From the sequence record DRR378314_1513: DNA of 64,000 bases; one strand, given 5' to 3'. This document shows positions 2,347-64,000 of the stretch, one piece after another. Position 1 is the first letter of the stretch; every line of letters starts with the position of its first letter. The notes under the pieces are model-generated. The model saw only the letters and a program-made list of their open reading frames with translations. It had not been told where the DNA came from and did not search any database. The position numbers and the translations under genes are program-made.

Positions 2347-2357
2347 GACTACTCCTG

Positions 2358-2672: not shown

Positions 2673-2702
2673 TTGCTCCACTCCTGATAAGCTATACCCA
2701 AC

Positions 2703-2716
2703 AATGGTATACCATT
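2703..2716. promoter_or_regulatory. Perfect palindrome AATGGTATACCATT, GntR/FadR-type operator candidate
   Basis: 14-bp palindrome in AT-rich DNA about 30 bp upstream of the HapK-SDR-deacetylase-CMD operon. Confidence 0.55.
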
Positions 2717-2768
2717 ATTAGATTATTGATAGTCTCGAAATTCCTGCATCCATCATAGACCGTACAGA

Positions 2769-3068: not shown

Positions 3069-3229
3069 TGTGGAACTCCTCAAAATGCTGGTAGATCATC
3101 GCAACTAAATGATATATCCTTTGATAAGGGCTTTTTTGCCCGCGGCAAAGCCCCAATCGCACGCGAATGCGTCGGAACTTGAGATTGCCGAAAGCCAGTC
3201 CACCCATGTCACTTCGAGGCCACCAGAGA

Positions 3230-4237: not shown

Positions 4238-4241
4238 AATA

Positions 4242-9925: not shown

Positions 9926-10046
9926 ACGCTCCCGTAACGCACATAGATCGGTCGACGTGGAGCGCGCATACATGAACTATTTTTCATTAAATAACAATTG
10001 TTTAAGTTTGTTCGCGCCACGCCATCGCGCAAATATTTCGAAAGAT

Positions 10047-48769: not shown

Positions 48770-48934
48770 GTACCGCACTGGCCCTTAATATCCAGTGATA
48801 GTTCGGGAGAAACTGCTCACATGTTCGTTACAACTCGGTGAGAGATTGCGTTTCGCCTCAAAGCGGAATGCAGTCAGTCAACAACGGACATATGCCGGCC
48901 AAGCGCGGTCACAATGTGTCGCCATACGTCGCGC

Positions 48935-50311
48935 CTACGCCCCAGCCTGTATGACTTGCGCCGGATCGCCTCTGTGCACCTCTTCCGGCAGCCCCTCGAT
49001 CTCTTCGTCAACTGCCTCAGAGCCGAAGTCGGGATAGCGGCCCAACAAGAGAAGCACTGCTCCACCAGCCAAAACAATGATCGCACCGCTTGAGAGCGCC
49101 AGGGTGTAATTCCCGACCGTATCATACAGGTAGCCATAGGTGACCGGTCCGACGCCGCCCGCCACCGCGACGACGGTGTAAAAGCAGCCATAGATCGTGC
49201 CATATTTTCTTTGGCCGAAATATCGACTGACCAGATAGGCCAAGAGGTCGAATTCAAACCCAGCACCGAACCCAATCCCCGCAACAGCCAGGAAGGCTGC
49301 TCTCTGCGAAATGTCCGGCAAGGTCAGCGCCCAACACCCGGCGGCGGGGATAAACAGGATCAACAACGCGCAAAGCGGCGCCCAGAATTTGTCCAGCATC
49401 CATCCGCCGAGCAGGCGACCAGCAATAACCGCCAAGCCAAAACTCGCCGTAATGCCGCCAATCTGCGCCAGTGAGAATCCCTGAGTGCGAAGGATATTTT
49501 CCAGATTTGGCGTCGGTGCAGTCAGCGCAAACGCGATCAACAGGAATGACAGCGCGATGACCCAGAAATTCTTGTGCATCAGCGCTTGCTTCAGCGTGTA
49601 CCCAGGCAAAACGGGTGCTGTCTGTATTGCCGAGGCTGAAGGGCCATCCTCCCGCACAGGGGCAGCCTCGACGACATTCTGCTTTTCCTTCAGGAACAGC
49701 AGGACAATCGGAAGACCGATCACAATCGGCAACATGCCGATACATACAAAGGCCATTCGCCATCCAAACTGTTCGATCAGCATCGCAGTGTACGGCTTGA
49801 TCAGAAATCCTGTGAAGCCGGTACCTGCGCTGGCCAGGCCGAGCGCCAGCCCCTTGTTCTTGTCAAACCAGCCGTTCACCACCGACGTCCAAGTGGCTGA
49901 CAGCGTTCCGGCACCGAGAGCCGCCATGACCGTCCACTGAAGGTACAACATCAACAAGGACCCGTTGTTGAGCGACAAGCTCATAAAACAGATTCCGAAG
50001 CTGGTCAGCGAAACTGTCGCCACCTTTCGCGCCCCGAACCTGTCCACACAATAGCCCGCCAACGGGCTTATGATCATGATGACCACGCCCTGAATCGCGA
50101 TGACCACCATCAGGGACGAGAAGCTCCAGCCGAAATCATCTGCCAACTCAGGGGCAAACATCCCGATCGTGTAAAATGGTATAGGACTAAGCCCAACGGA
50201 CACGCCAACCATGGCGGCGATGACAACCAACCAAGCTTGTATCGAGTTGCGTTTGTCGGCGGAGGCAGAAGAGGAATTTTTAGAAATGATTTCACCGTTC
50301 AGGGTAGACAC
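48935..50311 (-). CDS. MFS transporter (OFA/monocarboxylate-like)
   Basis: GYCVDRFGAR; WFDKNKGLALG; about 12 TM segments. Confidence 0.88.
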   Translation of the reverse strand: MSTLNGEIISKNSSSASADKRNSIQAWLVVIAAMVGVSVGLSPIPFYTIGMFAPELADDFGWSFSSLMVVIAIQGVVIMIISPLAGYCVDRFGARKVATVSLTSFGICFMSLSLNNGSLLMLYLQWTVMAALGAGTLSATWTSVVNGWFDKNKGLALGLASAGTGFTGFLIKPYTAMLIEQFGWRMAFVCIGMLPIVIGLPIVLLFLKEKQNVVEAAPVREDGPSASAIQTAPVLPGYTLKQALMHKNFWVIALSFLLIAFALTAPTPNLENILRTQGFSLAQIGGITASFGLAVIAGRLLGGWMLDKFWAPLCALLILFIPAAGCWALTLPDISQRAAFLAVAGIGFGAGFEFDLLAYLVSRYFGQRKYGTIYGCFYTVVAVAGGVGPVTYGYLYDTVGNYTLALSSGAIIVLAGGAVLLLLGRYPDFGSEAVDEEIEGLPEEVHRGDPAQVIQAGA

Positions 50312-50410
50312 GCGACAACGATTATCGCAGCAATAGTTATATTAATATATCATTTTAAATACGCGCGATATTCCTGTCTAGGATATTGTCGAACTGGCGG
50401 GAAAACTCAC

Positions 50411-52105
50411 ATGGCAGGCTACTCTTCGGGCGCAACTGATCAAAACAGAAACATCAGGCGAGCATTCGTATCGGTCGGGTCCAAGAAAGTTCACTACAGG
50501 GTTTGCGGTTCGGGACCGGCAATCGTCCTGCTCCACGATTCTCCGCGCTCCTCCCGTCTGCACACACCAACCATGCTTGGTCTTGCAAACTCCTTCACCG
50601 TGTTTGCCCTTGATACGCCAGGATATGGCAATTCCGACCCGCTAGGTATCGAACAGCCTGAAATCGGCGACTTTGCAGATGCACTTGATCAAGCGTTGGG
50701 CGCACTGGGATTGAGAGATGTGCCTCTGTACGCAACCCACACCAGTGCCAAGATCGCCCTGGATTATGCCGCGCGCTACTCAGGGCCGCCCCGACTGATC
50801 CTTGATGGTCTTTCAATCCCCACATCGCCAACGCCCCCAGACTTCATCGCAGCGTATATGCGGCCATTCGTGAAGGACGATGATGGCGCCTTCATCGCCA
50901 AGGAATGGATCCGGGTGCGCGACATGCTGCGCTGGTTTCCGTGGTTCAATCCGGACGCATCCAAGCGCATGCAGCTTGAAGTTTCGCCGGACTGGGTCCG
51001 CGATTACACGCTCGATCTGTTCGCGGCAGGCCCACATTACTCAGATGCCTACGCCGCGGCGATGCGATATGATCCAAAACCGGCTCTGCTTGGGGTAACA
51101 ACTCCGACAGTAGTGGGGGCGAAATCTGACGATGTCCTGTTCGACAGTCTTCAGCGTGTCCCAACCGACAAGAACTCAAATCTGGAAACGGCCCCCCTTT
51201 CGGCTGACCGTGAAGAATGGCTCGCATGGTTGATCAAAGAGTTGGGACAAAGTGCCAATGAAAGCATTTCGTCTGCGAAATCCTCTTCCACATTTGATGA
51301 CGACCACGTGTATGTAGACGTCAATGATGGCCAGATATTCGCACGGCAATATGGCGATGCTGCGGCCCCCAAAGTTCTCGTTCTGGATACGCCGTTCCTT
51401 GTGCAGGGTCAGCAATGGGCTGAAGCACTCAAACAGGATTACCGCATCATCCTGCCTGACCTGCCGGGCTTCGGGGAATCCGATGCGCTGAATTCCATCC
51501 TTCCCGAAAGCTTTGCGCGCGCAATTAACAGCTTGCTGACTGAACTCTCCGACACGCCTGTGGCTGTGCTCGCGACGGGTTATGCTGCGCCCCTCGCAAT
51601 CCTGCTTGCGCACAAATACCCACATAAGGTTCGCCAACTGATTATAGATGGGGGCGCTAGCCAGAAATCCTTCCCGGAGGCCTCGGATTTGGATGAACTG
51701 GTTCCGTGTTTCGAATTCAGTCACGCAGGATCGCATCTCCACGAGACCTGGCACATGCTAAGAGACAGTCAGGCAAGCTGGCCTTGGCATGACCGCTCGA
51801 ACAACGCGCACCGCAAGATCGAACCGAAATTCGAACACCCCTATCTGTACGACAGTTTCATGGGCGTCCTGAAACAACCTGCGCACTATGGTGATGCCGT
51901 TCGTGCAAGCTTCAGCGCTGCAGCCGACCTGCCTGTTCCGACCCAAGACACCCTGTTCCTCGAACTGGAAAACGACCCTGCATTTTGCGATCTCCGGTCC
52001 TTGTCAGACAAATGGCCCGCCGCGCGAACCACTTCCAGAGCGGCCGATATTTCAAACTCCGTGGACGTGGTGCTGAACTTCCTGTCTACGGAGAGTCAAA
52101 CATGA
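50411..52105 (+). CDS. Tandem two-domain alpha/beta-hydrolase fold protein
   Basis: DTPGYGNSD and DLPGFGESD; domain 1 HDSP and ATHTS; domain 2 degenerate. Confidence 0.82.
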   Translation: MAGYSSGATDQNRNIRRAFVSVGSKKVHYRVCGSGPAIVLLHDSPRSSRLHTPTMLGLANSFTVFALDTPGYGNSDPLGIEQPEIGDFADALDQALGALGLRDVPLYATHTSAKIALDYAARYSGPPRLILDGLSIPTSPTPPDFIAAYMRPFVKDDDGAFIAKEWIRVRDMLRWFPWFNPDASKRMQLEVSPDWVRDYTLDLFAAGPHYSDAYAAAMRYDPKPALLGVTTPTVVGAKSDDVLFDSLQRVPTDKNSNLETAPLSADREEWLAWLIKELGQSANESISSAKSSSTFDDDHVYVDVNDGQIFARQYGDAAAPKVLVLDTPFLVQGQQWAEALKQDYRIILPDLPGFGESDALNSILPESFARAINSLLTELSDTPVAVLATGYAAPLAILLAHKYPHKVRQLIIDGGASQKSFPEASDLDELVPCFEFSHAGSHLHETWHMLRDSQASWPWHDRSNNAHRKIEPKFEHPYLYDSFMGVLKQPAHYGDAVRASFSAAADLPVPTQDTLFLELENDPAFCDLRSLSDKWPAARTTSRAADISNSVDVVLNFLSTESQT

Positions 52106-53484
52106 CCCAAGACACCGAGATCTCACCATCCGGCGTGAACACGGAATTACCGGAGGCCAGCATAAACTGGCCGAACGCCCGCTACGCCTGGTATGTTATC
52201 GCGCTTCTGACACTGGCCTATGCGCTCGCCATTCTCGATCGCGTATCAATCGCCCTACTGATTGAGCCCCTCGAACACTCACTTCATCTGACAGATACAC
52301 AGTTCGGCCTGCTTCAGGGAATGGCATTCAGCCTGTTCTACAGCGTCCTCGGATTGCCGCTAGGGCTCCTCTGTGACCGGACCAAACGGACCCCCATACT
52401 GGTAGGCGGGATTGCCCTCTGGAGTCTGGCAACAATGGGTTGCTCGCTCGCCTCGACATTCGAGGAATTGTTCGCTGCCCGCGTTCTCGTGGGCGTGGGG
52501 GAAGCGTCGCTTGTTCCTGCTGCAGCTTCCCTGATCGCAGACTTCTTCCCGCCGACAAAGAGACCGAAAGCGTATGGTGTCTTTGTGACGGGCAGTACAC
52601 TTGGCTCAGCAGCAGCGTTGCTGCTAAGCGGCCTGTTCCTGCACTGGTCCGAAGATCTGATTGCCTCTGTTCCCGACCTTTTCGGAGGCTTCGAGAACTG
52701 GCAACTGGTCTTCATCATGTGCGGAATTCCGGGCGTTTTTCTCGCGCTCATCATGTTTCTCACGATGCGCGAGCCCAAACGCCAAGGCATCGAAGTTACG
52801 GCAACCGAGTTCAGCCTGAAGCCCATACTGAAGCTATTTGCACAGCGCCCTGTCGCGTTCGGCACGCTCATTATCGGAACTGCGTTCAATCTGGTGTGTG
52901 TATACGCAATCATCGGCTGGATGCCTGCGCTGTTCATTCGAGTACATGAATGGGAAGCGGCAACAACCGGTCAGATACTCGGAATGGTCGGAATGCCGAT
53001 CAGTATTTTTGCTGCCATCAGCAGTGGTTGGGTCATCTCATGGCTGACCAAAAAAGGTCACAAGGATGCCCCGATGATTGCCGCGGCAGCGTGCGGCGTA
53101 TCCATGCTTGTCTTCGGCACAGCAACCAGCCTGGCACCATCCGCCTTGCTTGCACTCTTGGCCTACGCAATGAACGCGCTTTTCGTGAACTGGAACATTT
53201 CGTCTGTTTACTCTGGTGTCGCGCAAATCTCACCGAACCAGCTACGTGGTCAGGTAATGGCGCTGCACACAATTGCCTCCAGCCTGATCGCAATGTCGGC
53301 GGGCAACTTCATTGTCGGCTTCCTGACCGACACATTCTTCACCTCGCAACAAGGGCTCTCCTATGCCTTGGCGATTGTCTTCTCCGTATGCGGCACCGTA
53401 TCAGCCCTGATCCTGATGTTCGGCCGACGCGCATTCCGGGAAGCGGCAGTCGCCAACGAAGAAAGACTAACATCCAATGACTGA
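52102..53484 (+). CDS. MFS transporter (spinster-like)
   Basis: LDRVSIALL, DTQFGLL, RVLVGVGEA; ATGA overlap. Confidence 0.9.
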   Translation: MTQDTEISPSGVNTELPEASINWPNARYAWYVIALLTLAYALAILDRVSIALLIEPLEHSLHLTDTQFGLLQGMAFSLFYSVLGLPLGLLCDRTKRTPILVGGIALWSLATMGCSLASTFEELFAARVLVGVGEASLVPAAASLIADFFPPTKRPKAYGVFVTGSTLGSAAALLLSGLFLHWSEDLIASVPDLFGGFENWQLVFIMCGIPGVFLALIMFLTMREPKRQGIEVTATEFSLKPILKLFAQRPVAFGTLIIGTAFNLVCVYAIIGWMPALFIRVHEWEAATTGQILGMVGMPISIFAAISSGWVISWLTKKGHKDAPMIAAAACGVSMLVFGTATSLAPSALLALLAYAMNALFVNWNISSVYSGVAQISPNQLRGQVMALHTIASSLIAMSAGNFIVGFLTDTFFTSQQGLSYALAIVFSVCGTVSALILMFGRRAFREAAVANEERLTSND

Positions 53485-55084
53485 CACGATTGACCAAACC
53501 GCTCCGACATCCGGCACTCTCGACGCAGATCTTCTCGCACTCTTGGGTCCGGACGGATTTCTCACGGATCAGGCAACGTGTGAGCTTCACTCTTCTGACC
53601 TGCTGGAAACCGCCGGGGATTGCCGCGGTGTCATCCGACCGTCCAGCAAGGAAGAATTGTCCCAGGCTGTCGCAGTCCTTTCCGCGGCCAAAGTTCCGAT
53701 GGCGCCTCGTGGCGGCGGGCTGACCTATGTGCGCGGCTACACCATGCCGAAGGACGGGTTTGTATCCGTGGATCTCAGCCGGATGAACCGGATACTCGAG
53801 ATCAACGACCAAGACATGTACATCACCGTTGAACCGGGCGTGACCTGGAGAGAGATTTATCTCGCACTCAAACCGAAAGGCTTGCGCCTGCCTTTCTTCG
53901 GAACGTTCTCCGGCCGTGGGGCAACGGTTGGCGGCGGCCTTTCCAATGGTGCCTTGTTCTTGGGGACAGCGCGCTACGGTACAGCCGCCGAAATCGCGAT
54001 CGGCCTTCAAGTCGTTACGGCTGACGGCTCAATCATCCGTACAGGTCAGTTGGCGGTGAAGAATGCCTCCAAGCCCTTCTTCCGAACTTTTGGCCCGGAC
54101 ATGACAGGCGTATTCATTCACGATGCCGGCGCACTCGGCATCAAGGCTCAAGCGACCTTTCGCCTGATCAAGGACCCGGCTGTAACAGAGTATCTGTCAT
54201 TCGGCTTCCGCGACCGCGCAGCAGTACTAGAGGCCTTGTCCGAAATTGGTCGGTCCGAAGTCGCTGAAGAAGCATATGTGATGGACCCCGATAAAACGAA
54301 GGCAGCCCTCAGTGCCGATATGGACCTTGTTCGAGACGCCAAGGTCCTCGCGAAAGTGGTTCGTCAGGAGAAGAATCTGCTTCGCGGCATGAAAGCGGGC
54401 GCAAAGCTCGCCGCCTCGGGTCGCGGCATTGTGGAGGATGGTTGTTTCTCGATGCACCTCGTCTTGTCCGGACGAAGCCGTGCCGCCGTCGAAGAAGACA
54501 TGAAGCAGGCACGCAAGATCGCGGCAGATCATGGAGGCGAAGAACTGCCAGACTCGATTCCGCGTGCAACTCGCGCTGACTTGTTCCCATCTCTGGACAC
54601 GAGCATCGTGGGCCCGGATGCGGATCGCTGGGTCGCCCTGAACGCCAAAGTCGCACACAGCGACGCGCCCCCCTTGGTGGAAGCTGTCGAAAGCTGCATT
54701 GATGCGCACATGGATGAGTTCAAGAAGCACGGTGTTGTCGTCTCCCGCCTCCTGACCATCATCGGCACGCATTGCTTCAGCTATGAACCTGTCTTCAACT
54801 GGCGAGACACTTGGCTGCCCTTGCACCACGCGACGCTGTCAGACGAAGCCAAGCGGAAAACAATAGAGCCAGCCCCGAATCCAGAAGCTCGGGAACTCGT
54901 CATGAAAGTCCGCCAACAGATTGTCGATATCTTCACGGAGCATGGCGCAGCCTCCAATCAGATCGGGCGCACCTACCCTTATGCAAGCATCCTGCATCCT
55001 GAGTCGGCCAAATTCCTGAAGGCGGTAAAATCGGCGGTGGATCCGGACGGGCTCGTAAATCCCGGCGCGCTGGAACTCAACTAG
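53477..55084 (+). CDS. FAD-binding oxidoreductase (VAO/PCMH-GlcD superfamily)
   Basis: PRGGG, DLSRMNRI, VEPGVTW, ATVGG, DPDGLVNPG. Confidence 0.88.
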   Translation: MTDTIDQTAPTSGTLDADLLALLGPDGFLTDQATCELHSSDLLETAGDCRGVIRPSSKEELSQAVAVLSAAKVPMAPRGGGLTYVRGYTMPKDGFVSVDLSRMNRILEINDQDMYITVEPGVTWREIYLALKPKGLRLPFFGTFSGRGATVGGGLSNGALFLGTARYGTAAEIAIGLQVVTADGSIIRTGQLAVKNASKPFFRTFGPDMTGVFIHDAGALGIKAQATFRLIKDPAVTEYLSFGFRDRAAVLEALSEIGRSEVAEEAYVMDPDKTKAALSADMDLVRDAKVLAKVVRQEKNLLRGMKAGAKLAASGRGIVEDGCFSMHLVLSGRSRAAVEEDMKQARKIAADHGGEELPDSIPRATRADLFPSLDTSIVGPDADRWVALNAKVAHSDAPPLVEAVESCIDAHMDEFKKHGVVVSRLLTIIGTHCFSYEPVFNWRDTWLPLHHATLSDEAKRKTIEPAPNPEARELVMKVRQQIVDIFTEHGAASNQIGRTYPYASILHPESAKFLKAVKSAVDPDGLVNPGALELN

Positions 55085-55093
55085 GAGACTTTC

Positions 55094-55915
55094 ATGGCCC
55101 GCCCGCATATTGAATTCATCCAAACTCAGAATGTGGACTGGTCACCGTCGGCAGATGGATCAGACTGCAAGATCCTGAACGCAGACCCTGACAGCACCGA
55201 GGCCACGCTGATCGTGCGCTACCCTCCGGGCTATTCAGCCCCCGCTCATTCGGGAACAATGCCCGCGGAAGAGTACTTCGTCCTTGAAGGCAGTCTGGAA
55301 ATTGGCGGAAAGCCCCGCAATTTGCACGATTACGGCTTCCTTCCCGGCGGCAGCAAGGCTCCGTCTCGGACATCGGAACAAGGCGCGACGGTTCTGATCT
55401 TCAGATATGCGAAAGATGATCCGGACAGCATGGAGGGAGTCGCTGAGGCTATATCGCTGAATACAAGCACAATCCCCTGGGACACGACCGGTTTCGATCC
55501 GAATCTCGAACACCTCAGGATGGCCCGGAAAGTTCTGCGTGAGGCACCGAACAATAGCTGTCGAACCTGGCTCATGGTCGGGATGCCGCACGGCGTGCCC
55601 TCAAAGTCAAAGCTGCCCGCCGAAACCCATGATCATTGCGAAGAAATGTTCATGATATCAGGATCGATGTGGGCGCCTGAAGGCCACATGCAACCAGGTG
55701 CATACTTCTTCCGCCCCCCACATATCCTTCATGGGCCGCATGTTTCTGAAATGGGCTTTTTCCAGATCATGCGATCCCCCATGACGAACAAAGTCTACAC
55801 ACATTGGTCCGACGAACATCGCCCCTTGCCAATCGGAGCCACTCACGACCCTGTCGTACCAGACGGAACCCCCGCTTCCTGGACACGCCCATGGCGGCCT
55901 TCTGCAGACTATTAA
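55094..55915 (+). CDS. Two-domain cupin (DUF4437/ChrR-like)
   Basis: EEYFVLEG; ETHDHCEEMFMISG; YFFRPPHILHGP. Confidence 0.75.
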   Translation: MARPHIEFIQTQNVDWSPSADGSDCKILNADPDSTEATLIVRYPPGYSAPAHSGTMPAEEYFVLEGSLEIGGKPRNLHDYGFLPGGSKAPSRTSEQGATVLIFRYAKDDPDSMEGVAEAISLNTSTIPWDTTGFDPNLEHLRMARKVLREAPNNSCRTWLMVGMPHGVPSKSKLPAETHDHCEEMFMISGSMWAPEGHMQPGAYFFRPPHILHGPHVSEMGFFQIMRSPMTNKVYTHWSDEHRPLPIGATHDPVVPDGTPASWTRPWRPSADY

Positions 55916-55940
55916 CCTGCTATTGCTGAGTTTGCACACA

Positions 55941-55972
55941 AAAAAGAAGGGCTGCCAATTGGCAGCCCTTTT
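55941..55972. terminator. Bidirectional intrinsic terminator
   Basis: AAGGGCTGCC-AATT-GGCAGCCCTT with A tract left and T tract right, between convergent genes. Confidence 0.85.
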
Positions 55973-55999
55973 CGATTCAACGTTCAACGGCATACGCCG

Positions 56000-56728
56000 C
56001 TAGCTACGCTTCAACTCAACCAGCTCGTACCAGGTCATCATGTACCCGTCGACGCCGCCTTTGAGGAAGATGGCATCTTCGTCTGCGGTGACCCAGCAAT
56101 GATAATCAGGGTGGGACTTTCCATTTGGTCCAACCATACCGCCACTTTCATCCGTGAAGCGATAATAATAGGCATCGAACGTACCGGCAGCGACCGTGAC
56201 TTCTTCACGCCCCTCATAGATCAGCTCCATGGTGGTTTCCGCCAGCAATGGAGGCGTGGCACCGCGGTGATCTGGAGAAGGAAGGAAGGTACGAAGCTTG
56301 TGGATTGGCGCACCTTCGGAGCGATCGACCTTCTTCGTAATGTAAGCATCACCAGCGATTGGGTGCGTACCAAAACCATCGTACGAGCCATTGGTCGGCA
56401 TGGTCTGGGAAACGCGTCCGATGGACGGCCCATAGCTTTCACATTCGATCTGGTCTTCCAGCATGCGGAACCAACCAGATCCCATGAACTCGTCGCCGAT
56501 CGTCAGACGAACAAAGCAGTCCATCGGATTGTCATTCTCGTCGACACTGTAGATGATATCGCGGTGCACCGTCGGATCCGGATCTTCAAGTTCACAGCGG
56601 GCACGAAGCGTGCGCTTGCCATCAGAATGAATAGTCCAGTTGAAAAACTCCCGACCGCGCTCTTCCCCCTCGCGTCCCGGCTGTCGGGACGTGTAGAGAA
56701 TTTTTCCGTCAATTGTTCTATGTTTCAT
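56000..56728 (-). CDS. Hypothetical protein, beta-rich
   Basis: 242 aa; AAGGA RBS; in operon; no family recognised. Confidence 0.75.
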   Translation of the reverse strand: MKHRTIDGKILYTSRQPGREGEERGREFFNWTIHSDGKRTLRARCELEDPDPTVHRDIIYSVDENDNPMDCFVRLTIGDEFMGSGWFRMLEDQIECESYGPSIGRVSQTMPTNGSYDGFGTHPIAGDAYITKKVDRSEGAPIHKLRTFLPSPDHRGATPPLLAETTMELIYEGREEVTVAAGTFDAYYYRFTDESGGMVGPNGKSHPDYHCWVTADEDAIFLKGGVDGYMMTWYELVELKRS

Positions 56729-56758
56729 GTGTTATCCTTCTCTCCTTATATCGATTGA

Positions 56759-57415
56759 TCAGATGGGCGTTGCAATTCCGAGATAGCTGGCAACGAGCAC
56801 CAACACCCAAATCATCATCACGGCTGGGCGCGTCTTGTAGATTACGTCTGACAGGGCCTTGTCGGTTTCTGGCGTAGGCCCCTCTGAAGTCATTTGGGCA
56901 ATGGCCGGCCCGAGGGGAGTCAACATACGGCGAATGATCAGACCCAGCCCGATACAGCAACCGAGGGCGAGGAATTTCAATGCCACGAATAGCGGCAGGT
57001 CAATGGCGCCAGCCAGTCCCATGATGCCACTCGCAAACAGGCCCGCTAGAATGAGATAGCGCAGCAAGAGGTCGACGGGACGCGTCCAAGTGTTGCCTTT
57101 TCCATGGCTGAGATGAACGGACCAGGCGAGGGCGAGCCACACAAGGCCGATGATCCACACAGCCCCCACCAACAGCGGCGATACCATGAGCCAGCCTTTG
57201 ACGACCGCCAGGGTAAAACCAGTTGGGAAGGCCAAAATCAAGGCGGTGCGCGGTGCCATGTCGATATCGTTCAGTATCTTCAAAGACAGCATTCGTTCCG
57301 GAACCGTACGCTTCGGGTCCAGCAGAAATCCTGAACCGTAAAAAGCGCCCAAATCGCCTCCGAGCCAGTAAATTGGAATGAGAATGTGTAGAAGCGTAAG
57401 GAGTGCAATCTCCAT
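56759..57415 (-). CDS. Hypothetical integral membrane protein
   Basis: About 6 TM segments; LHIL..YWLGGDLG; 1 nt after upstream stop. Confidence 0.75.
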   Translation of the reverse strand: MEIALLTLLHILIPIYWLGGDLGAFYGSGFLLDPKRTVPERMLSLKILNDIDMAPRTALILAFPTGFTLAVVKGWLMVSPLLVGAVWIIGLVWLALAWSVHLSHGKGNTWTRPVDLLLRYLILAGLFASGIMGLAGAIDLPLFVALKFLALGCCIGLGLIIRRMLTPLGPAIAQMTSEGPTPETDKALSDVIYKTRPAVMMIWVLVLVASYLGIATPI

Positions 57416-57416
57416 T

Positions 57417-58274
57417 TTATTGTGTCTCCACTGAATTCATTAGAGCAGTCATTGCCGTCTTGCGAGCGGTTGAGAACGTGGAGTCATCAAACCGGGGAAG
57501 CTGTACGAAGTTCCCGCCTTTCAACGCTTTTGCGGAACTCCTGGAGGTTTCGAGCAACGGATCATTCTCTGCAGAGATCACCATTGCTGGCACATTCACC
57601 AATGGGAACCGGTCGAAGGCCTGCCAGCGAAAGGCTGCGCGATAGTTATTATGATATGTCTCGTTCGCCTTCAGCACTTCCAGCACCCAGGCCTTGATGT
57701 CTTCAGCGCTTCCCAAGCCGTTATCCCGGCGGAACTCACGTGTGCGCTTGTACCACGGGAAGAACATGTATTGATCGCGGCAGAACTGAAATATCTTTAT
57801 GAGATAGGCGCCTTCCAGATCGGCCGGAAAAGGGAATGCATAGGTCGACATAAGATCATCAAACTCAGCCGGGCTCAGAACCATGACCCCGTCTGCGACC
57901 AAGCTTCGCACGCGCTCAGGCGCAAGGATCGCGAGTTCTGTCGCGATCGTCCCACCAGTGTGAGATCCGTATACATCAGCCTTCTCGATCCCCATGGCAT
58001 CCATGAAATCGAGCATTGCCTTGGCCAGATCGGTGATCTCCACAGTTTCCAGAGACAGCGGATCGCTATCACCATTCCCAGGCGTATCTGGTGCAAATAC
58101 CTGTCCGACATCGGCGAAATCAGAGATCAGCTTCTCAAGCTGCTTCGAACTGCCAGGGGACGCGTGGAGAAACAGGAGCGGGGTGCCCTCACCCACTGTT
58201 CTGTAGTGCATCTGGCCGTGCGGGACATCTACGAAACCGCGCCGAATCTTCTTGGTATCAGACAAAGGAATCAT
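57417..58274 (-). CDS. Alpha/beta-hydrolase fold protein with non-canonical elbow (GSHTG)
   Basis: HASP; DTPGNGDSD; GSHTGG; start uncertain (58265-58325). Confidence 0.85.
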   Translation of the reverse strand: MIPLSDTKKIRRGFVDVPHGQMHYRTVGEGTPLLFLHASPGSSKQLEKLISDFADVGQVFAPDTPGNGDSDPLSLETVEITDLAKAMLDFMDAMGIEKADVYGSHTGGTIATELAILAPERVRSLVADGVMVLSPAEFDDLMSTYAFPFPADLEGAYLIKIFQFCRDQYMFFPWYKRTREFRRDNGLGSAEDIKAWVLEVLKANETYHNNYRAAFRWQAFDRFPLVNVPAMVISAENDPLLETSRSSAKALKGGNFVQLPRFDDSTFSTARKTAMTALMNSVETQ

Positions 58275-58305
58275 CTCCCGGAAAAAAGTTTGTGCCGCAC
58301 GCCAT

Positions 58306-59193
58306 TCAGGATGCGCGCTCAACAACTTCGAACAAGGCTCCGTCAGGACACCTCAGGACGCCGGCGCACTTTCCGCCATAGAGCGGCCCGTCCCGAACCG
58401 TGGGCTCAGACACCCAATGGCCGTGCAGCCGGTCGAAACCCGGAAACTCGATCGTGGTGATGGCAACACCGGGCGGAAGCTCTCCAGGCCGCGCCTCGCG
58501 CTTGGTTACCTCTTCTGGATACTGATCTAGCTCAAGGAAGACCTCCCCCTTCCATTTCGCTGTCACCAGTTCTGTTTTTTGATCTTTCGGGAGATTGAAC
58601 GCCAGAGTGATCATTGAATACTCAATAGCGATCGGGTCGATCATCTCAAATCCGAACACTTCCTTCACCCACTCAATTGAACGGGCAAGGTCACTACATG
58701 CCAGCACCATAATGAATGGGCGATCGACCAGTGATTGGGGCTCAGGCAAGCCGCTTGCGGGGTCATCCACCTTGATTTCGGTCAGGTACACAATCTCTTT
58801 GTCCGGACCACGCACCTGCATTGGCTTTACGGTCGGAAAGCCATCCAAAGGCTTCGGCGGACCAATAATATCAAAAGGTGATTGCTCCATACGGGCATTG
58901 ACGACTTCAACATCCTGGACGCAGATTTCAGTCGCAGCCCAGCCAAGCGTTCTTATTGGCTCGTAGGATTCGACTGGCTCGCCTTCGACGAATCGCAGGA
59001 AAACTTCCTGTCCTGATACTGGCTGCAATACGGCATAGGGTTTGCCTGCCGAATTTGGTGCCCCCCAACTTGCCGCCAGGTCAGCGGGAACCTCACCCGA
59101 CTCAACTACGCTGTAGTCGAACCATTTCTCATACCGCTCCACCGTTTCGGAAACGGTACCGACGACCCAAGTTGCACATTTCAATAGCGTCAC
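58306..59193 (-). CDS. VOC/glyoxalase superfamily protein (two-domain)
   Basis: GWAATEICVQDV, GPDKEIVYLTE, CPDGALFEVVE; GTG start after GAAGGGG. Confidence 0.72.
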   Translation of the reverse strand: MTLLKCATWVVGTVSETVERYEKWFDYSVVESGEVPADLAASWGAPNSAGKPYAVLQPVSGQEVFLRFVEGEPVESYEPIRTLGWAATEICVQDVEVVNARMEQSPFDIIGPPKPLDGFPTVKPMQVRGPDKEIVYLTEIKVDDPASGLPEPQSLVDRPFIMVLACSDLARSIEWVKEVFGFEMIDPIAIEYSMITLAFNLPKDQKTELVTAKWKGEVFLELDQYPEEVTKREARPGELPPGVAITTIEFPGFDRLHGHWVSEPTVRDGPLYGGKCAGVLRCPDGALFEVVERAS

Positions 59194-59227
59194 GTAACAA
59201 ACCCCTTCGGCGCGCATACACAAATCT

Positions 59228-59251
59228 TATTGTTATATGGCTATAACAATA
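59228..59251. promoter_or_regulatory. Operator-like perfect inverted repeat TATTGTTATA-N4-TATAACAATA
   Basis: 10-bp arms; same core at 61613-61632. Confidence 0.7.
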
Positions 59252-59270
59252 TGGCAAGCGGGATTCAGAA

Positions 59271-59888
59271 TTACTGCGCAGAAAGATATAACCAAGGTCT
59301 GTTTTGACTATGCTTCGAGCGGAACTTCTCGATTTGATCGACAGATTTGCGCGTGAGCTCAATCAGGTCGAGCGCCTCCATGAGCATCGTCCGCGCCTCG
59401 TCTTCCAGATCAAACGTAAAAGTATGCCCGTCGGCCGAGACCGTCATGGTTCGAAGGTCGATTGCGACCTCTCCTCCTGCCTGCCCTATGCCAGCTAGGG
59501 TCTCCACATCATCTTGGGCCAGTTGAATTGGTGCGATGCCGTTTCGGATGCAATTGCTGCGAAAAATGGGCGCATATGACGGCGCGATGACCGCCCGAAA
59601 TCCGTATTCAGCCAATGCCCAAACGGCGTGCTCCCGACTTGAGCCACAACCAAAATTGTTCCCGGCAATGAGAATTTCCGCCCCCTGATACTTCGCCTGA
59701 TTCAAAACGAAATCGGGGTTTGGCTCTCTTGAACGGGGGCTTGTATATCGCCACCCCGCGAACAATCCGTCAGCAAGACCGGTCTTGGAGACGGAGCGCA
59801 TTTCCCTGGACGGAATAATCGCATCCGTATCCACGTTTTCTCGCATCAACGGCACTGCGATGGATCGCAATTCGATCAAAGGCTTCAT
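59271..59888 (-). CDS. leuD: Isopropylmalate dehydratase-like small subunit (divergent)
   Basis: NVDTDAIIP, NFGCGSSREHAVWAL. Confidence 0.88.
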   Translation of the reverse strand: MKPLIELRSIAVPLMRENVDTDAIIPSREMRSVSKTGLADGLFAGWRYTSPRSREPNPDFVLNQAKYQGAEILIAGNNFGCGSSREHAVWALAEYGFRAVIAPSYAPIFRSNCIRNGIAPIQLAQDDVETLAGIGQAGGEVAIDLRTMTVSADGHTFTFDLEDEARTMLMEALDLIELTRKSVDQIEKFRSKHSQNRPWLYLSAQ

Positions 59889-61321
59889 GCGTTCGGCTCC
59901 AGATCTGCAGGATTGGTGATCCGCCCGGTAATTGCCGAAGCGGCAACAGTCTCAGGGGACGCAATATGAGTTCTGGTATTCGGCCCCTGGCGACTTTCAA
60001 AATTGCGATTTGTGGAACTGACCACTCTCTCTTCCGGACCAAAGCTCTCGCCACCGGCAAAGAAACACATCGAGCAGCCAGATTCGCGCCACTCGAACCC
60101 GGCATCCTTGAATATTTGATCCAGACCTTCTGCCTCCGCCTGCGCCTTTACCTGAGTTGACCCCGGCACACAGATTGCCCGTACGGAAGGAGAGATTTTG
60201 CGACCTCTCAGCAGAGCGGCTGCACGGCGCAGATCTGAAATACGGCTGTTGGTACAGGATCCGATAAAGGCTCCGTCGATCTCCAGCTCACTCAAATCGT
60301 CTGTCGACGTCAGCCCCATATATTCGCGAGCGCGGTCGTACGTCGCTCGACTGTCTCCCAGTTTGAGACTTTCGAAATCAGGCACATCACTCCCAATCGC
60401 CACGGCATGTTGAGGGCTGTTCCCCCAAGTAACCATTGGCTTGAGCGAGGACGCATCGACGACGTATTCCACGTCGAACGCCGCATCAGCATCAGTCTGC
60501 AAGGTCTGCCAATGCGCGACCGCCGCATCCCAGCCTGCCCTCTTGGGAGAAAAAGCGCGCCCCTTCAGATAGTCGAACGTCTTGCTGTCGGGCGCGATGA
60601 TTGCCGTCACTGCCGACAGCTCTGTTGCCATGTTGCAAAGGGTCATGCGAGCTTCCATGTCCAGAGCACGCACGGCCTCACCGGCAAATTCCACCACATG
60701 CCCCTTGGCACCGGCAGAGCCCAGCAACTGGACAATGTGCAGCGCCAGATCCTTCGCCGTCACATAAGCAGGAAGCGCGCCGTCTATGCGCACCCGCATT
60801 TCCTTCGGACGGTTCATCCGCAAGGTAGCCGTTGCCAGCACATGCTCTGCTTCGGTCGAACCAATGCCCCAGGCAAATGCACCAAACGCCCCTTGTGTGC
60901 AGGTATGACTGTCAGGACAGACCAGCGTAGCGCCGGGCAGCACAATGCCTTGCTCTGGTGAAACTACGTGAACGATGCCTTGGCGCTGATCATCTAGATC
61001 AAACAGAGTGATGCCAAAGCGCTTCGCCTCGGCCCGGAAAGTCTGCAGAAACTCCTTTCCGGTAGGCATGAGCGTATCGTCGTTTCGCCCCGGAAACGTG
61101 TCCACGATATGATCCATCGTCGCAAACACCATGGAAGGATCGAGCACGGTTCTGCCCTTCTCCCGCAATGTTTGAAGCGCCACCCCGCCGGTGCGCTCAT
61201 GCAGCATCAATCGATCAATCGCCAGAAGGTCTGTCGCCTCATTTAGCGAGGTTACGACATGCTCATCCCAGATCTTGCTGGCCAGAGTTCTTGGACTCGA
61301 GATTTCAGAGTTCTTGTTCAT
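59885..61321 (-). CDS. leuC: Isopropylmalate dehydratase-like large subunit (divergent)
   Basis: DSHT, IGSCTN, GCSMC, STNRNFESRQG; start uncertain (61321 or 61405). Confidence 0.9.
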   Translation of the reverse strand: MNKNSEISSPRTLASKIWDEHVVTSLNEATDLLAIDRLMLHERTGGVALQTLREKGRTVLDPSMVFATMDHIVDTFPGRNDDTLMPTGKEFLQTFRAEAKRFGITLFDLDDQRQGIVHVVSPEQGIVLPGATLVCPDSHTCTQGAFGAFAWGIGSTEAEHVLATATLRMNRPKEMRVRIDGALPAYVTAKDLALHIVQLLGSAGAKGHVVEFAGEAVRALDMEARMTLCNMATELSAVTAIIAPDSKTFDYLKGRAFSPKRAGWDAAVAHWQTLQTDADAAFDVEYVVDASSLKPMVTWGNSPQHAVAIGSDVPDFESLKLGDSRATYDRAREYMGLTSTDDLSELEIDGAFIGSCTNSRISDLRRAAALLRGRKISPSVRAICVPGSTQVKAQAEAEGLDQIFKDAGFEWRESGCSMCFFAGGESFGPEERVVSSTNRNFESRQGPNTRTHIASPETVAASAITGRITNPADLEPNA

Positions 61322-61612
61322 ATCAAACGCGAGTTCATCAATTGGTGCACCCCTGGCAGAATAAAGCTGCCCAGTATCGCCTTCCAATTCCGTAAACGCT
61401 TTCAATCCTTTCGCCTCTTAGCGGGAAACCTGATGGAGACCTGAGCCTCCTTCGAGAGCCGGACAATCAATGCGGGCGTCGCCTAAGATGCGCTGCACGC
61501 TCATGCCAGAGAGATCCAGCCTCGACGTTATGACGCGTTGCGCTCAATTGCGCGAAAGCGTCTCTCGAAACATGCATCCAGCCGTAAATCACTCTCGACT
61601 CTATACGTTTAT

Positions 61613-61632
61613 TTGTTATATTTGAATAACAA
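61613..61632. promoter_or_regulatory. Operator-like inverted repeat TTGTTAT-N6-ATAACAA
   Basis: Perfect 7-bp arms between divergent leuC-like and amidase genes. Confidence 0.7.
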
Positions 61633-62111
61633 TTGGATCAACAAGAAATACGGGAAATTGCCGCTTTGATCGGAGAGACTTGCCTTCGAAATGACCATGA
61701 GACGGTCAAGCTGGCTGCTCTCGAAAGCTCTGAGGGCTCAAAGCAGGCGCAACCTACGCAATGCGACGCTAAGGAAGTCGATAATCCCTGGTCAAGGCTG
61801 GCTGGCTTCTGGCGCCGGGTCATTTTATTACCAGCACGTTGTGCCCGTTCCGCAAGATTAAGCGGATTGTTCACTCCAAGATTATGCATGCACAAAAACA
61901 GTGCGCTTTCATCGAATCGAAATGACGATCAATCGATTGCGCCCTACAAATTTTTACCGAACGCAGTCTCAATATCGCGGCTCGCAATGCTCTTGGCCAG
62001 TAGTGCTGCTTCTCGAGCATTCATCGATTTCATTCAGTATGCGATTTCAGAACCCATCTCATTCTTTACCGCGGCGCCTGGCGCCGAACCTGACACGATT
62101 GGAGTACGTTG

Positions 62112-62792
62112 ATGTCACTTGTCGGAACCAAAATGGTCTCGGACGGCCGGACCGCCAAAGAGATATTCGAGGAAGTTATCAGCAATCCCGAGCGCGCCAA
62201 GTTCGGATTTGGTGAGAAGCTCGCAATCATCAACGTGGACATCCAGAACGCGTACACCCGGATCGACGAATTCAAGACAGCCTATGAGGCTGACCCGCGT
62301 CAAATCGAGTATGTGAACACGATTTCCAATCTTGCTCGCCAGAAAGGCATGCCGGTCATCTGGACGCACGTTGCCTTCGCCGAGGATGGTGCAGATGCAG
62401 GTATTTGGGGCACACGGACGAACACGCCCGACTCCCTTCAAAATATCAAGTATGGCAGCCGTCGACACGACTTTGATGATCGGTGTGAAATCGACAAGAA
62501 CGACATGATCTACACAAAGCGTATGCCGTCTGCCTTCTTTGAAACGCCCCTGCAAAGCCTTTTGGTTTGGCACAAGGTCGATACCGTGGTGATCACTGGC
62601 GGAAGCACATCAGGCTGTGTTCGCGCGACCGCTGTGGAAGCGCTCTCCCGTGGTTACCGGGCAATTGTTCCTCTAGAGACATGCGCGGACAAGCATGAGA
62701 GTTTCCACTACGCCAACCTGACCGATCTCGCGATCAAGTATGCTGACGTGGAACCTGTGCAAACCGTGATCGATTGGCTGGAGGCTCAGTAA
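62112..62792 (+). CDS. Isochorismatase-family cysteine amidohydrolase (maleamate amidohydrolase/N-carbamoylsarcosine amidase-like)
   Basis: Asp-Lys-Cys triad: NVDIQ, KRMPSAFF, STSGCVRAT. Confidence 0.88.
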   Translation: MSLVGTKMVSDGRTAKEIFEEVISNPERAKFGFGEKLAIINVDIQNAYTRIDEFKTAYEADPRQIEYVNTISNLARQKGMPVIWTHVAFAEDGADAGIWGTRTNTPDSLQNIKYGSRRHDFDDRCEIDKNDMIYTKRMPSAFFETPLQSLLVWHKVDTVVITGGSTSGCVRATAVEALSRGYRAIVPLETCADKHESFHYANLTDLAIKYADVEPVQTVIDWLEAQ

Positions 62793-63691
62793 TGAACGAA
62801 GGCCAGGCAGATCCGGGGCTGTATGATTACACGCCCTACAGAAACCGCCCAAAGATAGAGTGGCCGGATGGAAAGAAGGTCGCTGTCTGGGTTTCGCCAA
62901 ATCTTGAATTCTATGAATTGGATCCACCAAAGAATCCAATTCGCGCAAGCTGGAAAATGCCGCATCCTGACGTGGTGAACTATTCGCATCGCGACTATGC
63001 AAACCGTGTGGGCCACTGGCGCATGGCGGAAGTCATGGAACGGCACGGGTTCAAGGGATCGGTGTCCCTGTCCGTTGCCCTTTGCCAACATGTTCCTGAA
63101 GTTGTTAAGCATGCCAACGCTCTCGGGTGGGAGTTCTTCAGCCACGGGATATATAATACCCGCTACTCCTATGGCATGGACGAAGCGCAAGAGCGCGCCA
63201 TCATCGAGGACTCCATCCGAACGGTAAAAGAAGCCACGGGTCAGGACATCAAAGGCTGGTTGGCCCCCGCTCTCACACACACGCCACGCACGCTGGATCT
63301 GATCGCGGAGTACGGGCTGACCTACACTTGCGATCTGTACCATGATGATCAGCCCATGCCCGTATCGGTAAAATCAGGACGTCTGATTTCCATGCCATAC
63401 AGCCTTGAGGTGAACGATCACTATGGCTTCTTCATCTACAACATGAGTCCTCGGGAATACGCTGACACGTTGATCCGGCAATACGAACGCCTTGCCGCCG
63501 AAGGCGAGAATTCAGGCACCGTGATGTGCATTCCGCTTCACAGCTACCTGATTGGTCAACCGCATCGGATCGGCCCCTTTGAGGAGGTTCTGCGTCATAT
63601 CGCAGAGGACGGCCGCGCCTGGATCACTCGTAGTGGCGACATTGCTGAACACTATCTCGCAAATTATGCCGATCAGAAGGGAGCGTCCTGA
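62792..63691 (+). CDS. Polysaccharide deacetylase-fold protein (PuuE-related)
   Basis: WPDGKKVAVWV, RDYANRVG, GWLAP, PYSLEVND, IPLHSYLIGQPHR; TAATG coupling. Confidence 0.87.
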   Translation: MNEGQADPGLYDYTPYRNRPKIEWPDGKKVAVWVSPNLEFYELDPPKNPIRASWKMPHPDVVNYSHRDYANRVGHWRMAEVMERHGFKGSVSLSVALCQHVPEVVKHANALGWEFFSHGIYNTRYSYGMDEAQERAIIEDSIRTVKEATGQDIKGWLAPALTHTPRTLDLIAEYGLTYTCDLYHDDQPMPVSVKSGRLISMPYSLEVNDHYGFFIYNMSPREYADTLIRQYERLAAEGENSGTVMCIPLHSYLIGQPHRIGPFEEVLRHIAEDGRAWITRSGDIAEHYLANYADQKGAS

Positions 63692-64000
63692 TGAGTCTGC
63701 CCGCCTCCTATCTCGAATATGACAAGCGCCGCAAAGGCATGGACCATGACCTGTACCCTTGGTCCAACATGTTTGAACGCCAACCAGTATCTTGGGCGAA
63801 CAACAAGAAGGTGGCCACCTGGATTGTAATCGATCTGGAGTGGTTCCCGATCACACCAAATGACAAACCTTTCCGTGCGCCAGGCCACATGCAGACAGCA
63901 TATCCTGACTATCGTCATTATACGTCGCGTGACTATGGAAGCCGGATTGGCGTGTATCGACTGCTCGATGCACTCAAGAAGGTGAATGCGAAAGCGTCTG
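63691..64000 (+). CDS. Polysaccharide deacetylase-fold protein, partial (runs off window)
   Basis: Read directly: MSLPASYLEYDKRRKGMDHDLYPW..WANNKKVATWIV..RDYGSRIGVYRLLD; TGATG coupling; absent from ORF track. Confidence 0.85.
   Translation, partial: MSLPASYLEYDKRRKGMDHDLYPWSNMFERQPVSWANNKKVATWIVIDLEWFPITPNDKPFRAPGHMQTAYPDYRHYTSRDYGSRIGVYRLLDALKKVNAKAS

Follow-up and report, generated by a model that had tools for sequence, protein, structure and literature searches.

Which kind of compound is broken down by the genes at positions 48935 to 64000 of sequence record DRR378314_1513, and by what route, is the question that this locus raises. The window (the whole stretch of DNA analysed, 64,000 nucleotides) ends in this block, here called the island, in which 15 genes in five tightly packed transcription units were defined from open reading frame (ORF) calls together with Pfam and NCBIfam profile scores; 14 of them are named below. 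Every class of gene that an initial annotation of this DNA had listed was recovered where it had been placed. We propose that the island belongs to an undescribed catabolic route of uptake, oxidative tailoring, ring opening or deacylation, deamidation, hydration of an alkyl-maleate and cleavage, a scheme predicted from sequence to which, taken as a whole, we give a probability of about 0.5. Gene content, synteny, a shared operator, active-site residues and paralogy were observed directly.

The proposed route

An organic-anion substrate would enter through two MFS carriers (MFS1 and MFS2), to which relatives of the island add a TonB-dependent receptor. The flavoprotein FADox, a bicupin, the VOC-fold protein V, the alpha/beta-fold proteins H1 and ABH2x, the barrel protein U and the membrane protein Mb would oxidise or rearrange it, yielding either an N-acyl-maleamate or a cyclic imide with a five-membered ring, namely a substituted maleimide or succinimide. 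The PuuE-like CE4 proteins P1 and P2 would then open the ring or remove the acyl group to give a half-amide, from which IsoC, a Cys-hydrolase resembling NicF and Ami, would release ammonia and leave an alkyl-maleate; a dedicated LeuCD paralogue would hydrate this alkyl-substituted maleate to an alkyl-malate. Cleavage to pyruvate and an acid or acyl-CoA would follow, by lyases known from relatives. The candidates are, on the one hand, a lyase resembling ICL and PrpB and, on the other, an HMG-CoA-lyase-like lyase working with a CoA-transferase; such a lyase, if this genome has one, would lie beyond the window.

Each chemical step, and the order of the steps, we infer. The succession of uptake, oxidation, ring opening, deamidation and hydration had already been suggested in the initial annotation, and the last three are natural roles of the families found. 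The steady partners of the system are LeuCD in several copies, PrpB-, PrpD-, TcuA- and CitE-like enzymes, CoA-transferases and the HMG-CoA-lyase-like lyase, and it is from this company of branched di- and tricarboxylate enzymes that we argue that the released skeleton is a substituted C4-dicarboxylate. Precedent exists for the lower half of the scheme (CE4 hydrolase, Cys-hydrolase amidase, LeuCD-type hydratase and, in relatives, lyase).

Candidate genes for ring opening, deamidation and hydration

The candidate amidase IsoC (62112-62792, plus strand) is an isochorismatase-family Cys-hydrolase (PF00857, 98.2 bits against a cut-off of 27). Its matches in the PDB were 4L07 (E = 4e-30), N-carbamoylsarcosine amidase (E = 4.5e-26; range about 1e-25 to 1e-26) and 3OT4/3UAO (E = 3e-18), and its Asp-Lys-Cys triad aligned with that of 4L07, the Cys being the residue replaced by Ala in 4L08. 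The PDB titles of 4L07/4L08 and 3OT4/3UAO read only "isochorismatase family"; we take these structures to be maleamate amidases of the nicotine and nicotinate pathways. An amidase-signature amidase stands where IsoC is missing in Caulobacter loci, an exchange that fits a half-amide step as a non-orthologous swap.

Downstream of IsoC on the same strand lie P1 (62792-63691), a PuuE-like CE4 amidohydrolase (PF01522), and P2 (63691-64000), a second PuuE-like paralogue that is truncated by the window edge and is 85% identical to its orthologue in the related genome G115 over 103 aa (G numbers denote genomes and L numbers loci). The nearest solved relative of P1 was PuuE (3CL6, E = 3e-26), HpPgdA (3QBU) reaching only E = 9e-9, and PuuE was also the best solved relative of a third paralogue, PuuE3. 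The PuuE model TIGR03212 (cut-off 424.6) was missed by both P1 (118.9) and PuuE3 (218.6). In 19 sequences from several families, P1 had a mean column identity of 86% with about 200 invariant columns, and it kept about 80% identity across families; P2, which is 30-32% identical to P1, was looser (62% mean column identity). The tightness of P1 suggests strong constraint, perhaps through an obligate partner or a very small substrate. Homologues of P1 filled 3430 clusters at E ≤ 1e-40, and among the 120 homologues listed none had a functional name, the only labels being "polysaccharide deacetylase" or an automatic "allantoinase."

The two hydratase subunits are encoded on the minus strand by LeuD (59271-59888; Aconitase_C, 119.7 bits) and LeuC (59885-61321; Aconitase, 520 bits). 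Both passed their equivalog-domain models (LeuC, TIGR00170, 570.1 versus 560.25; LeuD, TIGR00171, 203 versus 116.25) and, because they did, the specificity of the enzyme is not readable from sequence. Genome G001, which is without the cluster, has one LeuC, at 46% identity. G115 and G025 have a cluster copy (80% and 75%, respectively) and three to four others at 44-47%, several of them within about 30 kb. The cluster LeuCD is a dedicated paralogue and not the copy for leucine biosynthesis.

Distribution and synteny

The island is accessory and patchily distributed among related genomes. The nearest genome, G001 (99% complete), matched positions 4529-48836 of the window at 98-99% identity (98% in the flank that ends at 48836) and had no match to the 15-kb block that follows (48837-64000). 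G001 had no match to positions 1-4528 either, and it was without a FADox homologue at E ≤ 1e-30 and without a homologue of barrel protein U at E ≤ 1e-40. A barrel-protein homologue was found in 26 of 201 sampled genomes of the family, at 70% identity or more in only five (G115, G025, G009, G059, and G177), and FADox at 75% identity or more in only two, G025 and G115 (75-77%).

In G115 and G025, which represent two other genera of the family, all 14 named genes were collinear with the window at 52-93% identity, from ABH2x (52-58%) through MFS1 (68%) to IsoC (86-90%) and P1 (88-93%). Beyond the family, 80 loci were fetched by alignment to barrel protein U, of 405 confirmed stretches. All 14 genes stood in window order in 5 of the 80 (Hyphomonas L019 and Novosphingobium L046, L050, L072, and L091), and Mb alone was missing in five Sphingomonas-type loci (L027, L037, L042, L071, and L081). 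Counted at 50% coverage or more, with many loci ending at contig ends, the genes were present in the following numbers of the 80 loci: V in 58, H1 in 53, Mb in 50, P1 in 48, P2 in 48 (adjoining P1), FADox or its paralogue in 46, MFS1 in 43, IsoC in 33, ABH2x in 30, MFS2 in 27, LeuC in 26, the cupin in 23 and LeuD in 20. A check of synteny had been called for in the initial annotation, which treated the genes as one system; the genes proved to be conserved together and in order across genera and families, as does the position of the operator described below.

In genus g4, a barrel protein (60-63% identity) and a flavoprotein (41-43%) lay a few kb apart, for example at G160:C2:180488-184431 and G004:C1:1423209-1428072, and in about 13 more genomes; this pair looks like a sister system.

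A shared operator

The first transcription unit holds MFS1 alone (minus strand) and the second ABH2x, MFS2, FADox and the bicupin (plus strand). On the minus strand the third holds LeuC and LeuD and, past a spacer of 47 nucleotides (nt) counted to the longest ORF start of V, the fourth holds V, H1, Mb and U; the fifth (plus strand) holds IsoC, P1 and P2. The palindrome TTGTTAT-N6-ATAACAA occurred in the promoter spacers of these units in two perfect copies and one degenerate copy. A perfect copy upstream of V (59230-59249) overlaps a promoter-like site at 59257-59229, the second perfect copy, in the divergent LeuC/IsoC spacer (61613-61632), overlaps a promoter-like site at 61595-61622, and the copy with three mismatches, in the divergent MFS1/ABH2x spacer (50334-50353), abuts a promoter-like site at 50380-50352 that has 10 of 12 hexamer matches. 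At up to three mismatches the palindrome was found four times in the 64-kb window versus 0.91 expected, a count reached in none of 100 shuffles; the fourth match (9978-9997) lies outside the cluster. These figures agree with the shared operator that had been noticed earlier. Promoter-like sites as a class were not enriched (7 observed versus 8.6 expected).

Exact copies of the operator were found in the equivalent divergent spacer in 2 of 98 loci, those of G115 (L015, 7622-7641) and Hyphomonas (L019, 4044-4063). In a scan of 11 loci made without a chance control, sites with up to two mismatches were present in equivalent spacers of L019, L014, L016, L017, L046, L032, and L081 and were not found in L027, L021, and L091; L046 had a two-mismatch site at the same position as the operator upstream of V. 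Half-sites of the form T-GT...AC-A are typical of GntR-family operators, and Novosphingobium-type clusters carry a GntR/UTRA gene; L032, L046, and L072 are loci with such a GntR/HutC-type gene. The arrangement is best explained if the transcription units of the island answer to one palindromic operator, predicted to be of the GntR type.

Carriers and an upper module of atypical proteins

MFS1 (48935-50311, minus strand; PF07690, 144 bits), the first island gene on its side, is an MFS carrier of the oxalate/formate-monocarboxylate type, its top NCBIfam matches being the lactate and OFA families, all under cut-off. MFS2 (52102-53484, plus strand; PF07690, 158.9 bits) is of the anion:cation symporter (D-galactonate-like) type, with TIGR00893 at 106.8, under cut-off.

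Two alpha/beta-fold proteins had been flagged as atypical hydrolases, and in both a His replaces the nucleophile. H1 (57417-58274, minus strand; Pfam) has G-S-H-T-G at the nucleophile elbow, the His aligning with Ser112 of BphD and with the dehalogenase Asp; the form G-S/M-H-T-G was found in 37 of 45 homologous ORFs, the other eight being unmatched by the regular expression used. ABH2x (50411-52105, plus strand) is a tandem double protein with two Abhydrolase stretches (Pfam), in which the elbow residue was His in the N-domain of 28 of 28 aligned homologues and Gly in the C-domain of 26 of 28. A Ser, Asp or Cys nucleophile was absent from the elbow in both proteins.

V (305-aa ORF; 58306-59217/59223, minus strand) had no match in Pfam and no sequence match in the PDB. 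Its structure model (predicted local distance difference test [pLDDT] score, 92.5) showed two domains with the paired beta-alpha-beta-beta-beta modules of the VOC superfamily, and Foldseek matched it to maize glyoxalase I (6BNZ; E = 4.8e-13, template modelling score of 0.65-0.70) and PcpA (4HUZ; E = 4.3e-10). Among 22 sequences of V no His stood in the invariant or 90%-conserved columns, and the invariant residues included Glu, Asp and Tyr. The bicupin (55094-55915, plus strand; ChrR-like Cupin_7/DUF4437, Pfam) had an H-x-H-x-E-E motif and two further His residues in its C-terminal cupin, conserved in at least 95% of 22 sequences. FADox (53477-55084, plus strand; FAD_binding_4 [PF01565], 114.8 bits) is a VAO/PCMH-type flavoprotein oxidase or dehydrogenase, whose PDB matches cover the FAD domain only and whose C-terminal cap scored barely over the cut-off for PF02913 (FAD-oxidase_C, 22.2 versus 21.2 bits).

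The marker of the island, U (56000-56728, minus strand), is a 242-aa soluble beta-barrel of DUF3108-like type that had no Pfam match itself; it has 1224 homologues, some of which carry PF11306, and keeps about 70% identity across families. Its model (pLDDT, 87) is a closed barrel with the nearest folds in DUF1849 (6NTR, Z = 16.6) and DUF1089 (2H1T, Z = 15.7), both domains of unknown function, and with further matches to LolA, VioE and porin-like barrels, so that no function followed from the fold searches; nothing relevant to DUF3108/PF11306 was found in the literature by title. Mb (56759-57415, minus strand), a 218-aa integral membrane protein with no Pfam match, has His, Asp and Trp residues conserved at 95% or more in 47 sequences, and the automatic name "CopD-like" given to it in the Atlas is a lead only.

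Proteins with the folds of this upper module frequently need no organic cofactor and act on substrates that are reactive and electron-rich. Each of its members lacks the canonical catalytic residue of its own family, and the whole upper half is without precedent. For these two reasons we commit ourselves only to "oxidative tailoring" that would yield a ring-opened or imide intermediate.

A larger island in relatives and a second fragment

The window is best explained as holding one end of a larger catabolic island. In relatives, a family-III CoA-transferase and an HMG-CoA-lyase-family lyase lie between LeuC and the amidase, this lyase exceeding the cut-off of the HMG-CoA-lyase subfamily (291.7 versus 246); the window is a trimmed variant without these two genes. 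The LeuC/amidase spacer of the window (61322-62111) is 787 bp long and lower in G+C (0.515 per kb window), and its place is taken in G115, G025, and L019 by 2.3 kb with the CoA-transferase and lyase genes.

That the cluster continues past the window edge, as had been surmised, was borne out by relatives, in which the rest of P2 is followed by a PrpB-like ICL/PEPM lyase (256, below the cut-off of 354) or by a second LeuCD pair. The PEPM lyase comes directly after P2 in G115, and L021, L077, and others have the second LeuCD pair with a lyase. A TonB-dependent receptor follows MFS1 in relatives.

In G115, a complete genome, the system spans about 65 kb (L100, L014, L015, and L101; G115:C1:3104000-3169000). 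Apart from the housekeeping LeuCD it includes three LeuCD pairs, as well as three PuuE-like genes and amidases of two kinds, one of them amidase-signature. A PaaK-like ligase, an enoyl-CoA hydratase, an acyl-CoA dehydrogenase and two further CoA-transferases belong to it too. A CitE/RipC-like lyase, HyuAB, a second VAO-type flavoprotein, a flavocytochrome-c/TcuA-like flavoprotein, a conserved methyltransferase-domain protein, enone-reductase-like dehydrogenases and a second TonB receptor are also present. HyuAB was found in two to three of the 80 loci, beside the cluster in G115, L049, L082, and L086. Previously unnamed conserved ORF families of the 80 loci that had matches were an amidase, a ligase, an alcohol dehydrogenase, an enoyl-CoA hydratase and an aconitase; the remaining conserved families are probably antisense ORFs.

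At the other end of the window, positions 36-3083 (minus strand) contain, by Pfam, a CMD-family gene (36-671), the PuuE3 ORF (602-1582), an SDR gene (1507-2346), a HapK/REDY-like gene (2358-2681) and a DUF1330 gene (2769-3083). PuuE3, the SDR and the HapK-like protein were 78, 80, and 49% identical, respectively, to products of genes found either in Novosphingobium-type clusters or at most 6 kb away from MFS1 in G115, the latter holding for PuuE3 and the SDR. Positions 36-3083 are a second fragment of the system, separated from the main block by 46 kb. An inversion or insertion splitting a contiguous island would explain the 44-kb G001-like stretch (4529-48836) between the fragments. A CurA-like enone reductase is encoded next to the second fragment, at 3167-4237.

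Several Caulobacter loci (L080, L083, L084, L087, L089, L093, L068, and L075) had a variant cluster in which P2 and P1 are accompanied by a PEPM-family lyase and an aconitase-family protein, and in which the flanking genes of the barrel protein encode an enoyl-CoA hydratase, a PaaK-like ligase and an amidase-signature amidase. Within the 20 kb fetched, no amidase of the isochorismatase type was present. In L032 (1-10000) and about 25 other loci of Novosphingobium type, a methyltransferase-domain protein of about 410-440 aa was encoded, a fold unexpected for a catabolic cluster, with 77-89% identity among Novosphingobium- and Sphingomonas-type loci and 56-68% in three others. Between this protein and the TcuA-like flavoprotein, 25 loci have an ORF of about 119 aa; the representative of this family had no Pfam match.

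Comparison with known systems

The initial annotation held that the gene set matches no nic, rut or puu operon, and indeed no nic, rut or puu equivalog model was reached. For Rut, RutB scored 37.9 versus 377.95 and RutD 34.7 versus 238.5, and among the 15 island products no luciferase-like, RidA or nitroreductase partner was found by Pfam. The aerobic nic cluster (nicABCDXFE) has a counterpart only for the NicF-like step; no hydroxylase, monooxygenase, serine deformylase or maleate isomerase family was among the Pfam matches of the island. IsoC shares with NicF and Ami the isochorismatase-like fold and the Asp-Lys-Cys triad and would occupy the same logical place, the release of ammonia from the half-amide of an unsaturated dicarboxylate. 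The nic pathway differs in that the island is without the partners NicX, NicC, NicAB, NicD, and NicE and in that nic isomerises the acid, whereas the island would hydrate it by LeuCD; moreover, the similarity of IsoC to 4L07 reaches only the E value given above and no equivalog cut-off.

Cyclic-imide metabolism resembles the lower half of the route in that a CE4-fold hydrolase followed by an amidase yields a dicarboxylate, and Blastobacter sp. strain A17p-4 reportedly pairs an imidase with a half-amidase in this way. According to a fungal study, HxnM and HxnN pair an imidase with an amidase, and HxnM is a CE4 protein (HpPgdA-like) more than 60% identical to the cyclic-imide hydrolase of Pseudomonas putida (PMC8478523). 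Given that precedent, the combination of a ring-opening CE4 enzyme with an amidase acting next is a known one, and the amidase-signature enzyme of the Caulobacter variant is like HxnN. The cyclic-imide systems differ from the island in that P1 and P2 appear nearer to PuuE than to the HpPgdA-like imidase branch (for P1, E = 3e-26 with PuuE and 9e-9 with HpPgdA), in the two or three adjacent paralogues, in the isochorismatase type of the amidase and in the much larger oxidative island. PuuE itself, the best solved relative of P1 and PuuE3, shares with them the CE4 fold and opens a five-membered cyclic diacyl-amine; it differs in that both proteins remain far under the TIGR03212 cut-off and in that the island has no urate-pathway partners.

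For the hydratase and lyase steps three more systems may be compared. The nicotinate fermentation of Eubacterium barkeri is said to use the 2,3-dimethylmaleate hydratase DmdAB and the 2,3-dimethylmalate lyase Dml, and in relatives of the island a LeuCD-type hydratase adjoins an ICL/PEPM-family lyase; the hosts of the island, however, are aerobic alphaproteobacteria, none of the upstream fermentation enzymes are present and the place of the lyase is beyond the window edge. HbzIJ of Pseudomonas alcaligenes is reportedly a two-subunit LeuCD-type maleate hydratase of the gentisate pathway, and the island LeuCD is likened to it, by description, as a hydratase in the catabolism of a maleate; the gentisate context differs in having no nitrogen steps. 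Chloroflexus reportedly combines R-citramalyl-CoA lyase with succinyl-CoA:R-citramalate CoA-transferase. The divergent family-III CoA-transferase and HMG-CoA-lyase-family lyase beside LeuCD in relatives resemble that combination, which would take citraconate-type acids to pyruvate and acyl-CoA; the difference is that this pair is absent from the window, without remnants.

No published description of the island was found in the open literature, supplements and subscription journals being outside the search. We found no literature that pairs a maleate hydratase with maleamate, none that brings the enzymes of the cluster together, no bacterial catabolic genes for hematinic acid or maleimides in the literature searched by title listing and, among the matches listed, nothing relevant on the catabolism of dimethylmaleate or citraconimide since 2015.

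Evidence against the route and alternative readings

Several observations weigh against the route that we propose. Neither P1 and P2 nor IsoC, FADox or the alpha/beta-fold proteins reached a named NCBIfam equivalog model. For P1 the allantoinase PuuE is a closer match than HpPgdA, the sole solved member tied to the imidase branch, IsoC matches N-carbamoylsarcosine amidase almost as well as it matches 4L07, and LeuC and LeuD pass the LeuCD models. In the window neither a lyase nor a regulator gene was visible, and no remnants of the CoA-transferase and lyase genes were detected (best tblastn E value of at least 0.33, falling outside the LeuC/IsoC spacer); about 80 kb around the G115 copy contained no gene specific to a substrate class. 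Finally, because the upper-module proteins are without characterised relatives, the roles and the order given to them are guesses.

The alternative that survives best, which we nevertheless consider unlikely, is a nic-like route for a substituted hydroxypyridine or pyridone, in which the bicupin or the VOC protein would cleave the ring to an N-acyl-alkylmaleamate, P1 and P2 would act as de-N-acylases and would open no ring, and IsoC and then LeuCD would follow. It would make use of the full metal motif kept by the C-terminal cupin and of the habit of CE4 enzymes, which are typically de-N-acetylases, and the nearest solved relatives of IsoC, 4L07 and 3OT4/3UAO, are taken to be maleamate amidases of nicotine and nicotinate pathways. 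The usual type of deformylase, a serine alpha/beta hydrolase, counts as missing because both alpha/beta-fold proteins lack the nucleophile, which also speaks for this route. The 15 products, however, include no molybdenum hydroxylase or flavin monooxygenase to make a dihydroxypyridine, P1 most resembles a ring-opening allantoinase, and two to three P paralogues and several LeuCD pairs per island fit several related small rings better.

The island could also be a so far undescribed bacterial route that mineralises pyrrole fragments of haem, bilins and chlorophyll, an idea that we hold to be decidedly unlikely because its sole support is chemical logic. Carboxylated mono- and dipyrroles, or bilins themselves, would be taken up, and methine bridges would be cut by the barrel, His-elbow alpha/beta-fold, VOC, bicupin and HapK/DUF1330 proteins, all of which are oxygenase-like and cofactor-poor. 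The maleimides released in this way, which would bear methyl-vinyl, methyl-ethyl or methyl-carboxyethyl substituents (the methyl-carboxyethyl form is hematinic acid), would be opened by two to three PuuE-like paralogues and deamidated, and several LeuCD paralogues would hydrate the different dialkyl-maleates on the way to pyruvate and butyrate-, glutarate- or related acids or CoA esters. Such a route would account for the number of P and LeuCD paralogues and for the presence of PrpB-, PrpD- and TcuA-like enzymes, an acyl-CoA dehydrogenase and a CoA-transferase of which the best model, under cut-off, is succinate-glutarate. It would also account for the occurrence of the system in alphaproteobacteria associated with algae, plants and water. 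Hematinic acid, methyl-vinyl-maleimide and chlorophyll products with one or two pyrrole rings have been documented as natural products (PMC7318184, PMC10343206). No tetrapyrrole-specific neighbours (haem oxygenase and others) were among the Pfam matches of the roughly 80 kb of G115 or of L032, and no bacterial degradation pathway of this kind for bilins or chlorophyll was found in the literature.

Very unlikely, in our estimate, is a ureide or hydantoin route, in which P1 and P2 would open a hydantoin-like ring, IsoC would be an N-carbamoyl-amino-acid amidase, and LeuCD and the lyases would process the carbon skeleton. The closeness of P1 and the third paralogue to PuuE, the match of IsoC to N-carbamoylsarcosine amidase (E = 4.5e-26) and the HyuAB hydantoinase genes beside the cluster in G115, L049, L082, and L086 would suit it, but the PuuE cut-off was missed by a wide margin, HyuAB is confined to two to three of the 80 loci, and the partners (LeuCD, PrpB-, PrpD-, TcuA- and CitE-like enzymes and CoA-transferases) are not called for by a decarbamoylated amino acid.

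Biosynthesis of a maleimide- or maleic-anhydride-type natural product, instead of breakdown, seems to us extremely improbable: PrpD-, LeuCD- and HapK-like proteins also occur in biosynthetic clusters, but no polyketide synthase, non-ribosomal peptide synthetase or other synthase was seen, and the uptake-type carriers, TonB receptor, amidases, CoA-transferases and lyases lead to central metabolism. The reading that unrelated operons lie together by chance and that this LeuCD makes leucine, to which the passing of the LeuCD models and the different combination of modules across taxa might point, has scarcely any credit left and is already largely refuted by a gene order kept across at least four families, by the operator common to three spacers and by the single LeuC (46%) that G001 keeps without the block, carriers having extra copies.

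Significance

The marker proteins of the island are common: P1 homologues form 3430 clusters at E ≤ 1e-40, and the barrel protein was found in 405 genome loci. The window presents a lower module linked to a conserved upper module, with one operator spanning both and with atypical active sites. New enzyme activities are likely in the His-elbow alpha/beta-fold proteins, in the VOC protein free of His ligands and in the soluble barrel, which is near to DUF folds only. Cultured, non-pathogenic carriers include Novosphingobium barchaimii LL02, Novosphingobium sp. strain AP12, Caulobacter zeae and Hirschia litorea. With these carriers, a defined operator and few candidate substrates, the question lends itself to direct testing. 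If pigment-derived maleimides were the substrate, a gap in the carbon and nitrogen cycling of Earth's most abundant pigments would be filled.

Further features of the island

Within the transcription units, the genes overlap by 4 nt (ATGA; ABH2x/MFS2 and LeuC/LeuD), 8 nt (MFS2/FADox) or 1 nt (IsoC/P1 and P1/P2), and the remaining gaps measure 1-31 nt, in keeping with the tight coupling of operons described at the outset. Between the convergent units lies a hairpin terminator (55947-55970, minus strand) with a 10-bp stem, including seven GC pairs, followed by a T run. An ORF of 159 aa at 61633-62112 was not counted as a gene because it belongs to no Pfam family and had a counterpart in none of the 80 related loci. 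The G+C content gave no sharp island signal (0.52-0.58 inside versus 0.54-0.60 outside). At least half of the words sampled from this DNA were found in 17 sequencing runs from 12 studies, mostly labelled as marine or estuary metagenomes, and two RNA runs carried small shares of the sampled words (0.14 and 0.07).

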